In this document: piece by piece, positions 24,001 through 48,000 of the stretch
Position numbering within the stretch: the first letter of the stretch is position 1
Layout: each line of letters opens with the position of its first letter
Made by a program: the position numbers
NCBI RefSeq assembly: GCF_050320075.1
Contig: NZ_CP190018.1
Direction: 5' to 3' (one strand)
Origin: Escherichia coli
GTDB taxonomy: Bacteria > Pseudomonadota > Gammaproteobacteria > Enterobacterales > Enterobacteriaceae
Length of the DNA: 64,000 bases

Positions 24001-27000
24001 CCTATTTGGATTATGAAAATGCGCTAGGTGACGGCATAGGAGTGGGCTATGGCCAAAGTTATCAGCCCTGGCTTAGAGCTCAGGACGTTAAATCCCGTGG
24101 AAACCGTTCGATAGTCTTTGGCCTTAAGACGTTTCGAAACCATCATCTCCTTTCTTCTGTCGAAAGTAACTTTTTCTATCTGGCTGAGTTTAATGACTCG
24201 GTGATTGATATCCGGGAACAATTCCCACTCTTTCCTCTCCGGCTTACCCAACAAATAGCAAATCATCTACATTTTCAACATCCTATGGTGAGGGGAGTAA
24301 GAGGAGTACCTGTCGAAGTTCTGAATGTTATGACAACCGATTTTTTACTGACCTTGAGAACTCCTGAAGGCGGACTTCGATACAAAGCTATAGCAGTAAA
24401 ACATAACGAGAGCATACCTGAACGCGAAGCCCAAAAACTTGAAATAGAGAGGATGTTTTGGCAGTTGATTGATGTTGAGTTTCAAATTTATGTTGGCTCG
24501 GAACTCAATAACGTCGTCGGTAAAAACATTTGCTGGGCTACTTCTGTATTAAGAGATGGTTCTGAATTTTATGATAAATATCCTCTTGATAAAATCCGGT
24601 AATGACTCCAACTTATTGATAGTGTTTTATGTTCAGATAATGCCCGATGACTTTGTCATGCAGCTCCACCGATTTTGAGAACGACAGCGACTTCCGTCCC
24701 AGCCGTGCCAGGTGCTGCCTCAGATTCAGGTTATGCCGCTCAATTCGCTGCGTATATCGCTTGCTGATTACGTGCAGCTTTCCCTTCAGGCGGGATTCAT
24801 ACAGCGGCCAGCCATCCGTCATCCATATCACCACGTCAAAGGGTGACAGCAGGCTCATAAGACGCCCCAGCGTCGCCATAGTGCGTTCACCGAATACGTG
24901 CGCAACAACCGTCTTCCGGAGCCTGTCATACGCGTAAAACAGCCAGCGCTGGCGCGATTTAGCCCCGACGTATCCCCACTGTTCGTCCATTTCCGCGCAG
25001 ACGATGACGTCACTGCCCGGCTGTATGCGCGAGGTTACCGACTGCGGCCTGAGTTTTTTAAATGGCGGAAAATCGTGTTGAGGCCAACGCCCATAATGCG
25101 GGCAGTTGCCCGGCATCCAACGCCATTCATGGCCATATCAATGATTTTCTGGTGCGTACCGGGTTGAGAAGCGGTGTAAGTGAACTGCAGTTGCCATGTT
25201 TTACGGCAGTGAGAGCAGAGATAGCGCTGATGTCCGGCGGTGCTTTTGCCGTTACGCACCACCCCGTCAGTAGCTGAACAGGAGGGACAGCTGATAGAAA
25301 CAGAAGCCACTGGAGCACCTCAAAAACACCATCATACACTAAATCAGTAAGTTGGCAGCATCACCTGAAACCCGATAATGTACTAGATAAATTCTGGCCT
25401 CAGATGACATCAGAAAGAATCATCTCAAGATCAACCTATCATGACGGAACGCAGGAGAGAAGCGAGCTGGTTGAGATCCTGAGCGACATTGTATCCATGA
25501 CGAGATAATGTATTAAATAAGCATCTCAGGTGCATATATTCCGGTCCTCAACAAAGGACCGGAGTACAGAGTAGTAAAAACCCGAAATTAATCGGGTTTG
25601 AATTATATAAAGATTAACCGACTCCCGCGCCCAGGAACGATGTAAAATCACGCTTGTCGTGACATTTCTACAATGTTTACTTTTGACTATCAAGCCATTT
25701 ATTCATCTGCTCAATTTCACCTTTTTGAGCTTTAATGATGTCCTGCGCGAGCTTTCTCATTTTCGGATCTTTTCCGTATTTGAGCTCGGTCTCAGCCATT
25801 GCTATTGCCCCTTCATGGTGCGCTACCATGCCTTTCGCAAAAGCCTTGTCGGGATCGGACTCATTTACGGCAGCCATCATTTTGTCATGCATGTCTTTCA
25901 TGCCAGCCATATATTCCTGTGACGAAGCCGAGGTAGACATATCAGTCATTTTCATTTCTGAATGTTCTGCTGAAATCGCTGGCAGGGATAACATTAATAC
26001 TGCAAATAAAGTGTTTCTGGCTTTCATAAAAAATATCCTTTTAGCGTTGATGCCCGTTAACTGTAGCAGAATCTGATAAAAATGCCCCTGTAGGGGGCAA
26101 AGATGTTGCCATATATCCGGTTACGGAAAAATCTATCAAGGAAATAAGGACAGCACAGATACTTCCCTCGCCGTCAGCCTGCACTGAGCATGCGACGATG
26201 CGCTTCGGCCATGGCCTGATGTGGGCCAGACTGACCGTTATTCATAAATTCATGGGCAACTGCAGCTCTTTCATGCTCATTCATTGCCGCTAATGACTTC
26301 GACGGCCCGGTAGGGGAAACGGTCTGACTTCCCATCATCCTCTGATGACTTTCCACCATTTTCTGGTGCGCATCCGCCGACCCGTTCGTCATGGTTTCAT
26401 GAGCAATAATGGCCTGTTCATGCTGGTCCATACCGGCCATACGAGGTGCAGTCCCCTGGATCCCGACAGGAGCCGCAGCAGACTGCATCTGGTGAGCAGG
26501 TGCCTGTGCATTGTTGACCCGCTCATGGATATTCACGGTTTCAGTGGCCCAGGCCGAAGAAATTAAGCCAAAGCCCAGCAAGGATGCTAATACGATATTT
26601 TTCATGATAACTCTCCATTTCTTAATTAGTGATGTCCGGGGGAGTACAACCGGTGTTTTCAGTTCCATAACTGAAACAGGTTCGGAAGTGTTTATTTCTC
26701 CGGGAGGGGACTGGATATTCATTTCCTGGCGTCCACTGACGCCGGATATTGATAAAGCAATCCAGCCTTCCTGATAAGTTGCACTAATTATATCGAATGG
26801 CTTCTGTTTGCTGCATGACAGGCTAATGACATCTTTGTCATTTAAATCTTTATTCCCAGCACTGGGTGTCCGGAATCATTTTCTCCAGTCTGGGCACGGA
26901 TAAGATAAAACACGTTGAGTGTACGTCCGATTCCACCTGCACTCTTCCGTGATGTGCTTCCACGATTGACTTCACAATCGCAAGGCCGATGCCGCTGCCT

Positions 27001-45000: not shown

Positions 45001-48000
45001 CTGGAGCTTGGCGCAGATGACTACCTGATTAAGCCCTTTGATTTTACGGAGCTGGTTGCACGTGTAAGAACCCTACTGCGCCGGGCACGCTCGCAGGCCG
45101 CAACAGTCTGCACCATCGCCGATATGACCGTTGATATGGTGCGCCGGACCGTGATCCGTTCGGGGAAGAAGATCCATCTCACCGGTAAAGAATACGTTCT
45201 GCTTGAGTTGCTGCTGCAACGCACCGGAGAAGTGTTACCCAGGAGTCTTATCTCGTCCCTGGTCTGGAACATGAATTTTGACAGTGATACGAATGTGATT
45301 GATGTCGCCGTGAGACGTCTGAGAAGTAAAATTGATGATGACTTTGAGCCAAAACTGATCCATACCGTTCGCGGTGCCGGATATGTCCTGGAGATCAGAG
45401 AAGAGTGAGGTTCAAAATTTCCCTGACCACACGCCTGAGCCTGATTTTTTCTGCGGTGATGCTTACGGTATGGTGGTTATCAAGTTTTATCCTGATTAGC
45501 ACCCTTAATGGCTATTTCGATAATCAGGACCGCGATTTTCTGACAGGTAAACTTCAGCTCACCGAAGAGTTTCTTAAAACAGAGACGTTCAGGAACAAAA
45601 CGGATATTAAGTCATTATCAGAAAAAATAAACGATGCGATGGTGGGGCACAATGGCTTATTCATTTCTATAAAAAACATGGAAAATGAAAAAATTGTTGA
45701 ACTCTATGCCAAAAATTCTGTTGTTCCAGCGGTCCTGCTTAATAAGTCGGGTGATATTCTCGACTATATGATCCAGACGGAAGAAAATAACACCGTGTAC
45801 CGCAGTATCTCGCGGCGGGTTGCCGTGACGCCGGAACAGGGTAAAAGCAAACATGTCATCATTACGGTTGCCACGGATACTGGGTATCACACCCTGTTTA
45901 TGGACAAACTCAGTACCTGGCTGTTCTGGTTCAATATCGGTCTGGTCTTTATTTCTGTTTTTCTGGGCTGGCTGACCACACGTATTGGTCTGAAACCGCT
46001 ACGGGAAATGACCAGTCTGGCTTCCTCCATGACCGTACACAGCCTGGATCAGCGTCTAAATCCCGATCTGGCTCCGCCGGAAATCTCTGAGACCATGCAG
46101 GAGTTCAATAATATGTTTGATCGCCTGGAGGGGGCATTCCGGAAACTGTCAGATTTCTCGTCTGACATCGCGCATGAGCTGCGCACACCAGTCAGTAATC
46201 TGATGATGCAGACGCAGTTTGCACTGGCTAAGGAAAGGGATGTTTCGCATTACCGCGAAATTTTATTCGCTAACCTGGAAGAACTGAAAAGGTTGTCACG
46301 AATGACCAGTGACATGCTTTTTCTGGCACGTTCAGAGCATGGTCTGCTGCGGCTGGATAAACATGATGTGGATCTGGCAGCCGAACTGAATGAATTACGT
46401 GAGTTGTTCGAGCCCCTGGCAGACGAAACAGGAAAGACAATCACGGTTGAAGGAGAGGGCGTTGTTGCCGGAGACAGCGATATGCTCCGACGTGCTTTCA
46501 GTAACCTGCTTTCCAATGCAATCAAGTATTCTCCCGATAACACCTGTACAGCGATACACCTTGAGCGTGACAGTGACTGTGTGAACGTGATGATTACGAA
46601 TACGATGTCCGGCCAGGTTCCCGCTAATCTGGAACGTTTGTTTGACCGGTTCTATCGCGCAGACTCATCAAGGTTCTACAACACGGAAGGCGCGGGGCTG
46701 GGATTATCAATTACAAGGTCGATCATTCATGCTCACGGCGGCGAGCTGTCAGCAGAACAGCAGGGGCGTGAAATTGTGTTCAAAGTGCGCCTGTTAATGG
46801 ATTAATCCCGTTGTTCAGGAGAAACCTGGAAGGTGACAAAATTGTCATCATTCAGTCACGCGATAAACAGAGGCGGTTTTTTATAATTATTCATAAATCA
46901 GGAGCAGCGTGATAACACAATCACCTGGTTCCTGGAGTGATGATTAACCCGCCCTGAGATCAACTGCTTTCTCTGTTATAAGCCATTGATTGTTTGGGTA
47001 TGTAAACACCGGAGACCCAACCATGAAAAAGATTCTCGTATCATTTGTTGCCATTATGGCTGCCGCTTCATCTGCCATGGCTGCAGAGACAATGAACATG
47101 CATGACCAGGTAAATAATGCACAGGCACCTGCCCACCAGATGCAGTCATCTGCTGAAAAAAGTGCAATTCAGGGAGACAGCATGACAATGATGGATATGA
47201 GCAGTCACGATCAGGCCGCAATGTCCCATGACATGATGCAAAACAGCAATTCTGCTGCCCACCAGGACATGGCTGAAATGCATAAAAAAATGATGAAAGC
47301 TAAACCCGGAGCTACCAACGAAACAGCAAAGTCATTTTCTGAAATGAGCGAGCATGAGAAGGCCGCAGCTGTACATGAGAAGGCGAATAATGGTCAGTCT
47401 TCCGTTGTTCACCAGCAGCAGGCTGATAAGCATCGCAGTCAGATCACCCAGAATTAACCCGCAGCTCCACTTGTTAGACCCTCATTTGACGCCGAAGTCA
47501 CTGGCTTACGCTCCCGTCCGGGAGCGTTTTTTTTCCCATATATCAAACTTTAACTCTGAAGAGGTGGAAGTATCTGACCAACTGTAAGCGACTCGTCAGA
47601 ACCGTATTGATATTTACTGAGAGCTCAGATCAACTTTCCAGGGCAACAGATCGCGTACCCGGTTTGCCGGCCAGTCCTGGATATGTTCAATGACGTAACG
47701 CAGCCACTTTTCTGGCTCCACATTGTTCAGACGGCATGTGCCGATCAGCGAGTACAACACCGCCGCATGTTCACCACCGCTGTCGGAACCCGCGAACATC
47801 CAGTTTTTCCGGCCTACGGCCACTCCCCGTAAGGCGTTCTCTGCGATGTTGTTGTCGATTTCCACCCAGCCATTACTGCAGTACACGTTCAGTGCATCCC
47901 ACTGTTTCAGCAGGTATGCGAACGCTTTTGCCGTATCTGAGTGACGCGACAGTGTTTTCATCTGTTGCTGTATCCAGTCATACAGTGACTGCATCAGTGG

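Follow-up and report, generated by a model that had tools for sequence, protein, structure and literature searches.

Three SilE/PcoE-family paralogues and their probable two promoter designs in a chromosomal silver/copper resistance island of Escherichia coli

We analysed a 64,000-nt stretch of an Escherichia coli genome (assembly GCF_050320075.1, contig NZ_CP190018.1; the whole stretch is called the window here, and all coordinates refer to it) that carries a silver and copper resistance island, sil-pco, with three genes of the SilE/PcoE family: silE, pcoE and pcoE1 (= pcoF). These very probably encode three secreted His/Met-rich paralogues under two activator-dependent promoter designs. As read from the sequence, the regulatory split falls between silE and pcoE on one side and pcoE1 on the other, rather than between sil and pco. 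We think it probable that SilR or CusR acts at silE and pcoE, and that pcoE1 and the adjacent pcoG are expressed from a spacer of the PcoR type. The analysis draws on homology, motif content, the positions and conservation of operator-like boxes, collinearity with the cusC promoter and terminators, combined with published data on metal binding (SilE and PcoE), on regulation (of pcoE by CusR and of the promoter PpcoF by PcoRS) and on levels of copper induction. From these we infer where the −10 elements lie, the pairing of regulators with boxes in this host and a reduced metal capacity for PcoE1. As a determinant of metal resistance, the sil-pco island is widespread and co-selected, and the assignment of regulators to these metal “sponges” matters for predicting responses to silver versus copper.

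Exactly three SilE/PcoE paralogues are present, as a preliminary description of this DNA had proposed; tblastn searches with each protein against the whole window revealed no fourth family member. All three match the NCBIfam SilE model NF047789 significantly (silE, 288.8 bits, E-value 8e-87; pcoE, 135.8 bits, 1.3e-39; pcoE1, 80.5 bits, 1.5e-22). With a cutoff of 200 bits, only silE qualifies as a SilE equivalog; pcoE and pcoE1 belong to the family without being equivalogs. Precomputed annotations record Pfam family PF27346 (“PcoE”) for pcoE1 orthologues, and a Pfam-A scan of the three proteins, with a copy that did not contain PF27346, gave no match. The true start of silE (MKNIV...) is at 26605, a 182-amino acid open reading frame (ORF) being merely an in-frame upstream extension. 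When the three proteins were aligned, SilE and PcoE were 45% identical, SilE and PcoE1 32–35% and PcoE and PcoE1 35%, which bears out the earlier view of pcoE1 as the most divergent copy.

The Met/His repeats described previously were also recovered, together with leaders that resemble signal peptides. HxxM and MxxH motifs number 8 in mature SilE, 6 in PcoE and 4 in PcoE1, exceeding in each case the mean of composition-preserving shuffles (1.8, 2.4 and 0.6; P = 0.0002, 0.02 and 0.002, respectively). As read from the sequences, each protein begins with a hydrophobic leader of ~20 residues that closes with A-x-A (AWA/T, AFA/Q and AMA/A, the slash marking the end of the predicted leader), and a 20-residue signal peptide is documented for SilE (PMC5008109). 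The n-region of the PcoE1 leader has no Lys or Arg here; its orthologues have MK. Experimentally, SilE and PcoE have been shown to be disordered as apo-proteins and to fold on binding several Ag(I) or Cu(I) ions (PMC5008109). In the mechanism we propose, these two characterised, intrinsically disordered “metal sponges” buffer periplasmic Ag(I)/Cu(I), PcoE1/PcoF represents a conserved third subfamily, and each gene would be driven by an activator-dependent promoter with a box for an OmpR-family response regulator.

Table 1 Features of the sil-pco region in window coordinates.
Feature	Position	Strand	Description
silE	26174..26605	-	143 aa, periplasmic Ag/Cu-binding “molecular sponge”; AMRFinder: 100% to SilE in R478
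pcoE1 (= pcoF)	39922..40371	-	149 aa, divergent SilE/PcoE paralogue; RefSeq “copper resistance protein” WP_001023257
pcoE	47023..47457	+	144 aa, periplasmic copper “sponge”; RefSeq “copper resistance system metallochaperone PcoE”
silE box	26826..26841		ATGACAtcttTGTCAT; perfect CusR/SilR-type palindrome; kept in Pseudocitrobacter and two Kosakonia species
Rest of silE module	26787..26820	-	Third half-site TGTCAT 26820-26815; AAACAGA 26809-26803; predicted -10 TATAAT 26792-26787
silR/silC box	29075..29090	+	ATGACAacatTGTCAT; divergent spacer, perfect; absent from the preliminary description
Rest of silC module	to 29129	+	Third half-site TGTCAC 29096-29101; predicted -10 TAAAGT 29124-29129; both as in K-12 cusC
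pcoE box	46833..46848	+	GTGACAaaatTGTCAT; kept in Citrobacter, Pseudocitrobacter, Phytobacter and Rouxiella
Rest of pcoE module	to 46887	+	Third half-site AGTCAC 46854-46859; AAACAGA 46865-46871; predicted -10 TATAAT 46882-46887
Intrinsic terminator after silE	26083..26099	-	TGCCCCCTACAGGGGCA, then TTTTT
Intrinsic terminator after pcoE	47508..47527	+	8-bp stem, 6 G-C pairs, then T8
Box A	40472..40489		CATTACAcgatTGTAATG; perfect PcoR/CopR-type palindrome, pcoA-proximal; invariant in 9 loci
Box F	40445..40460		ATGACGtaaaTGTAAT (reads ATTACAtttaCGTCAT towards pcoE1); pcoE1-proximal candidate operator with hybrid half-sites; overlooked in the preliminary description
Predicted -10 of pcoE1/pcoF promoter	40412..40417	-	TATGAT; TATGAT/TATTAT block 26-27 bp downstream of box F, 9 loci
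Predicted extended -10 of pcoA	40508..40516	+	TGcTAGATT, 22 bp after box A; TGnTAGnTT conserved, 9 loci
pcoG	38896..39633	-	M23 metallopeptidase, 245 aa, downstream of pcoE1; Pfam Peptidase_M23 recorded for orthologues
silS + silR	26850..29004	-	Sensor kinase and response regulator, two-component system; ORF list and R478 annotation
pcoR + pcoS	44722..46805	+	Two-component system; ORF list and R478 annotation
tnsA-like ORF	23976-24602		Part of Tn7-like element; IS1B next at 24613-25310
IS66-family element	47614-49185 (transposase)		Directly after pcoE; begins where R478 homology stops, at 47582

The association of palindromes with the three genes is real and far beyond chance. The pattern TKACA-N4-TGTMA has four matches in 64 kb against 0.18 expected, all in sil/pco intergenic DNA (inverted repeats starting at 26826, 29075, 40473 and 46833), while the longer ATKACA-N4-TGTMAT has three exact matches (0.03 expected) and six with at most one mismatch (0.58 expected). 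An ATGACA...TGTCAT-type palindrome had been noted near each gene; conserved inverted repeats do lie near all three, but that literal sequence occurs in the window only at 26826-26841 and 29075-29090, and not at 40472 or 46833. In orthologous loci of other genera the boxes keep their position and sequence amid diverged intergenic DNA. A scan of one genome per species yielded 11 silE/pcoE loci, with the box 211–222 bp upstream of the match start in all silE orthologues and 171–180 bp upstream in all pcoE orthologues with enough upstream sequence. The boxes differ in type: the CusR-box form ATGACAAnnTTGTCAT is matched exactly in both hexamers at silE (26826) and silC (29075), and with one outer mismatch at pcoE (46833), whereas the pcoA/pcoE1 boxes do not fit it, having T instead of G in the half-site. 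A near-match within pcoC (43554, ATGAAAGGCATGTCAT) lies inside coding sequence and was treated as a chance occurrence.

The silE and pcoE boxes belong to a longer module that also precedes silC and, in E. coli K-12, cusC. Sequences from these four promoters and six orthologues align over 77 columns with zero gaps, and TnACA, TGTnAT, GTCA, A.CAGA and TA.A.T are invariant. The common module covers ~55 bp. By predicted position, the palindrome extends from about −61 to −46, followed by a 5-nt spacer and by nGTCAy at about −40 to −35, which repeats the proximal half-site directly, one helical turn further on, at an 11-bp pitch. The −10 element predicted from conservation is TAnAnT (TATAAT in silE and pcoE, TAAAGT in silC and cusC), and its distance from the box is 33 bp in every aligned sequence, as in cusC. 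That both silE and pcoE have this cusC-type arrangement suggests that gene and promoter were duplicated together. The intrinsic terminator after silE indicates that the gene is monocistronic; pcoE, which has a terminator of its own, would be likewise, both genes using the same module as silCFBA and the chromosomal cusCFBA. Given this module, phosphorylated SilR or CusR would most likely induce silE and pcoE early and to high levels when Cu(I)/Ag(I) is present, and the two gene products would act as fast first-line periplasmic buffers.

Two further aspects of these upstream regions were recorded. The motif AAnCAGA lies inside the predicted −35/−10 spacer of cusC, silC, silE and pcoE, one 11-bp step past the third half-site (26803-26809, 29107-29113 and 46865-46871; 1545-1551 in comparison locus L021). 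A structured leader or riboswitch was considered and dropped because the long predicted 5′ leaders fold with z-scores of only −1.7 (silE) and −1.3 (pcoE); scanning 25500-48000 against Rfam gave no match to any RNA family.

Between pcoA and pcoE1 there are two adjacent boxes. The core of box A (ATTACAcgatTGTAAT, 40473-40488) is an inverted repeat of GTAAT half-sites upstream of pcoA. Box F has one mismatch to ATKACA-N4-TGTMAT and lies on the pcoE1 side, 28 bp centre-to-centre from the 40473 box. For footprinting, the window was compared with eight loci whose PcoF proteins are 53–85% identical to the window protein. These were fetched via protein homologues, as the plasmid matches to the pcoE1-pcoA spacer are mostly too similar for this purpose (2,464 of 2,553 records at least 95% identical). 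All eight retain the order pcoA, divergent spacer, pcoF, and most retain pcoG. Across the nine spacers the sole long invariant blocks are CATTACAAT-nnn-GTAATG, corresponding to box A, and ATTACAtttayGTCAT, corresponding to box F; the latter is also found in loci L019 and L020. We propose that pcoE1 is transcribed together with pcoG, divergently from pcoABCDRS, out of this two-box spacer, in which the perfect ATTACA-N4-TGTAAT box would overlap the −35 region of the pcoA promoter and the hybrid ATTACA-N4-yGTCAT box would adjoin that of pcoE1. Induction of pcoE1-pcoG would then be modest, following a weaker, PcoR-dependent copper response.

Published work on this transcript agrees with such an arrangement. 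The account of PpcoF in Staehlin 2016 (PMC4824010), which takes it from a cited thesis, describes pcoF and pcoG as co-transcribed from this copper-inducible, PcoRS-regulated promoter; Arai et al. 2019 (bioRxiv 564534) use the names pcoE1 and pcoE2. No terminator-like site was found in the 288-bp gap between pcoE1 and pcoG. This gap contains a tandem CTGACAgATGACA at about 39690-39706, and in Serratia-lineage loci it holds an extra 65-amino acid ORF (4550-4747 in L003; 4511-4708 in L009). A signal peptide is not obvious in the pcoG product.

Expression data distinguish the same two groups of genes. E. coli CusR binds AAAATGACAAnnTTGTCATTTT and directly activates pcoE via TGACAAnnTTGTCAT, according to the passages of PMC11195947 and PMC5008109 that cite Munson 2000. 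In RNA-seq after 30 min of copper exposure (PMC7716197), log2 fold changes were 9.0 for silE, 6.7–7.5 for silCFBA, 5.7 for silP and 7.7 for pcoE, compared with 2.3 for pcoE1 (AOL22_23565), 1.7–2.5 for pcoABCD and 0.3–0.4 for pcoRS. Grouped by induction, the genes form two classes that match the two promoter designs, and pcoE1 is evidently transcribed (Table 2 and supplement of PMC7716197). AOL22_23565 can be recognised as pcoE1 from its length (450 nt), minus-strand orientation, annotation as “copper resistance protein” and location next to pcoA. Table 2 of that paper mislabels it as pcoG, the true M23 peptidase being AOL22_23560.

Several observations weigh against this division of the boxes between regulators. 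The RNA-seq was performed on another strain, a Salmonella with SGI-4, an island that is 95% identical. PcoR and SilR are 59% identical, with nearly identical C-terminal DNA-binding regions, and their recognition regions differ at only a few residues. Some orthologues have hybrid boxes: in Pseudocitrobacter silE is preceded by ATTACA..TGTCAT, and in Rouxiella pcoE is preceded by GTGACA..TGTAAT. The choice of regulator may not depend on G versus T at half-site position 3. Scans for consensus sigma-70 promoters near the three boxes gave 0–1 matches each, no more than shuffled sequence, which leaves the −10 elements unproven. Weak consensus matches are expected of activator-dependent promoters; as the scans were uninformative, the −10 elements were assigned from conservation.

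Taken to its limit, this line of argument would make all five boxes interchangeable among CusR, SilR and PcoR, forming one copper/silver regulon in which expression is set by promoter strength. The hybrid half-sites, which include those of box F, and the similarity of the SilR and PcoR DNA-binding regions fit such a scheme, and in Pseudomonas a single palindrome of this kind is common to three regulators (PMC11195947). In E. coli, however, CusRS and PcoRS act independently except for CusR at pcoE (PMC11195947), the RNA-seq induction classes are clearly distinct and match the two designs, and the ATTACA/TGTAAT and TGACA/TGTCA forms are each kept across genera at their own promoters. Full interchangeability thus seems rather unlikely to us. 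The idea that the boxes reflect separate control of the sil and pco systems, put forward in the preliminary description, holds in so far as a conserved response-regulator-type repeat lies upstream of each gene, but silE and pcoE group with silC and cusC. On the sequence evidence, separate control does not appear clean, and cross-regulation is likely in view of the hybrid boxes and the near-identical DNA-binding regions.

With SilR/CusR at silE and pcoE and a PcoR-type spacer at pcoE1 as the preferred assignment, the question arises which box serves pcoE1. The palindrome at 40472 had been attributed to pcoE1; it is a genuine box, but it adjoins the predicted pcoA promoter. Judged by position and conservation, the operator of pcoE1 itself is box F, at 40445-40460, the 40472 palindrome being pcoA-proximal. 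The simpler possibility is that the 40472 palindrome serves both genes and 40445-40460 is not an operator, much as cusRS and cusCFBA in E. coli share a single CusR box (PMC10920338), and the mismatch of box F in the window (CGTCAT) would suit this. Yet box F is as invariant as box A over the nine diverged loci, save one C/T position, and two of them, Citrobacter and Serratia Ag2, have it as a perfect ATTACA-N4-TGTCAT inverted repeat. Both boxes are also intact in Serratia-lineage loci L003, L004 and L009, where an insertion of 9–10 bp, equal to one helical turn, has moved them apart. Moreover, the −10-like block of pcoE1 lies about 55 bp from box A, compared with 26–27 bp from box F. We therefore regard a single shared operator as improbable.

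Conservation also characterises the PcoE1 protein. The window proteins were aligned with orthologues from five SilE/PcoE loci and another eight loci of the PcoF type. Members of the PcoF clade retain the first repeat (MNEH...HSFM...HQKM...HKKM), while the second, C-terminal Met/His repeat is consistently replaced: LNA[GEA] for MNEH, HEQV for HEFM, HQxQ for HQAM and K[LI]R for AHR. Residues M108 and H111 of the second repeat are part of the folding nucleus of SilE (PMC5008109). Orthologues of PcoE1, 53–99% identical and in the same synteny, are found in Klebsiella, Citrobacter, Cronobacter, Serratia and other genera. PcoE1 is thus a stable, selected subfamily and not a decaying copy; it probably has fewer soft-metal sites, and its capacity for metal may be correspondingly lower. 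A functionless, decaying duplicate of pcoE or silE, with nearby palindromes that are fortuitous or belong to pcoA alone, would account for PcoE1 scoring lowest of the three with the SilE model, for the missing second repeat (here LNAG, HEQV and KLR) and for a low RNA-seq read count (baseMean 104), but is very hard to reconcile with an ORF that is intact and syntenic across these genera, with clade-specific substitutions that are themselves conserved, implying selection, and with the copper induction seen in PMC7716197 and reported for PpcoF in the thesis-derived account of PMC4824010.

A broader scheme can be drawn from these observations, although as a whole it is doubtful: a two-tier sponge response set by promoter design and not by operon membership. 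Under this scheme, pcoE may have been duplicated with the whole cusC-type module, leaving a gene of the Sil/Cus regulon parked beside pcoRS. The hybrid operator of pcoE1, with one PcoR-type and one Sil/Cus-type half, may integrate both systems, and specificity may be switched by one base, G or T, at half-site position 3. The Met-poor, His-retaining PcoE1 may act specifically with PcoG, the M23 peptidase co-transcribed with it, and not as a bulk sponge.

The region from 26000 to 47582 (21.6 kb) is 99.9% identical by megablast to the sil-pco island (CHASRI) of the IncHI2 plasmids R478 and pAPEC-O1-R, and over 3,000 plasmid records of the collection searched with megablast have a match to the island. 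In R478 and other plasmids the locus is annotated as silESRCFBA-P plus pcoABCDRSE. According to the R478 annotation, the gene order is DUF305/copM, silE, silS, silR, silC, silF, silB, silA, DUF411 and silP, followed by DUF2933, the M23 peptidase, “copper resistance protein”, pcoABCDRS and pcoE. The window flanks are E. coli chromosome (yhiN, ars, pitA, rbbA), with the island forming a Tn7-like insertion that adjoins yhiN (about 23800-50500) and is interrupted by IS1. Its chromosomal junction is common to only 6 of 5,426 complete E. coli genomes. A DUF305/CopM-family gene just downstream of the silE terminator (25677-26027, minus strand) encodes a secreted Met/His-rich protein of a family unrelated to SilE/PcoE; no box was seen in front of it. 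After silP, a DUF2933 ORF of 65 amino acids (38665-38862, plus strand) has a His-rich tail, HLFHGHGGHGDHQHHG. The SGI-4 counterpart of this ORF is strongly induced by copper (log2 fold change 5.5; PMC7716197 supplement).

The silver/copper island is a thoroughly characterised system, and earlier publications already cover the paralogy of the sponges, the regulators, the CusR/copper boxes and the control of pcoE by CusR and of PpcoF by PcoRS. The small additions made here are a second conserved candidate operator beside pcoE1, the cusC-type module that silE and pcoE have in common, and the disappearance, conserved among PcoE1 proteins, of half the metal sites. Compared with SilE of pMG101 and PcoE of pRJ1004, there is no material difference: the silE product is a full-length SilE equivalog match, pcoE is annotated as PcoE, and both proteins have ten His, a predicted signal peptide of 20 residues and the motifs MxxHx5-6HxxM and HxxMxxxHxxM known from SilE (PMC5008109). 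With 99.9% DNA identity to published plasmids, silE and pcoE are the known genes themselves. PcoE1 corresponds to PcoF (Staehlin et al. 2016) or PcoE1 (Arai et al. 2019) of CHASRI, sharing the location between pcoG and pcoA, transcription divergent from pcoA, homology to pcoE and silE, and a promoter reported to be copper-inducible and PcoRS-regulated (PMC4824010; bioRxiv 564534). Those accounts do not describe an operator; the candidate second, hybrid box at 40445-40460 and the clade-wide loss of the C-terminal Met/His repeat are added here.

At the promoter level, the CusR box of the E. coli cusRS-cusCFBA spacer (AAAATGACAAnnTTGTCATTTT) is matched by the silC, silE and pcoE boxes, and the cusC promoter is collinear with all three over ~55 bp free of gaps, including the third GTCA half-site and the −10. 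The differences are an outer G instead of A in the pcoE box (GTGACA) and a consensus TATAAT −10 in silE and pcoE instead of the TAAAGT of cusC and silC. Box A has the GTAAT half-site in common with the Pseudomonas CopR consensus CTGACAn5GTAAT and the P. paraeruginosa CusR site ATTCATnnATGTAAT. Like the PcoR/CopR “copper box”, it precedes a copABCD-type operon beside its own two-component genes; in contrast to that box, two adjacent boxes are present here for divergent promoters, the second with one TGTCAT-like half.

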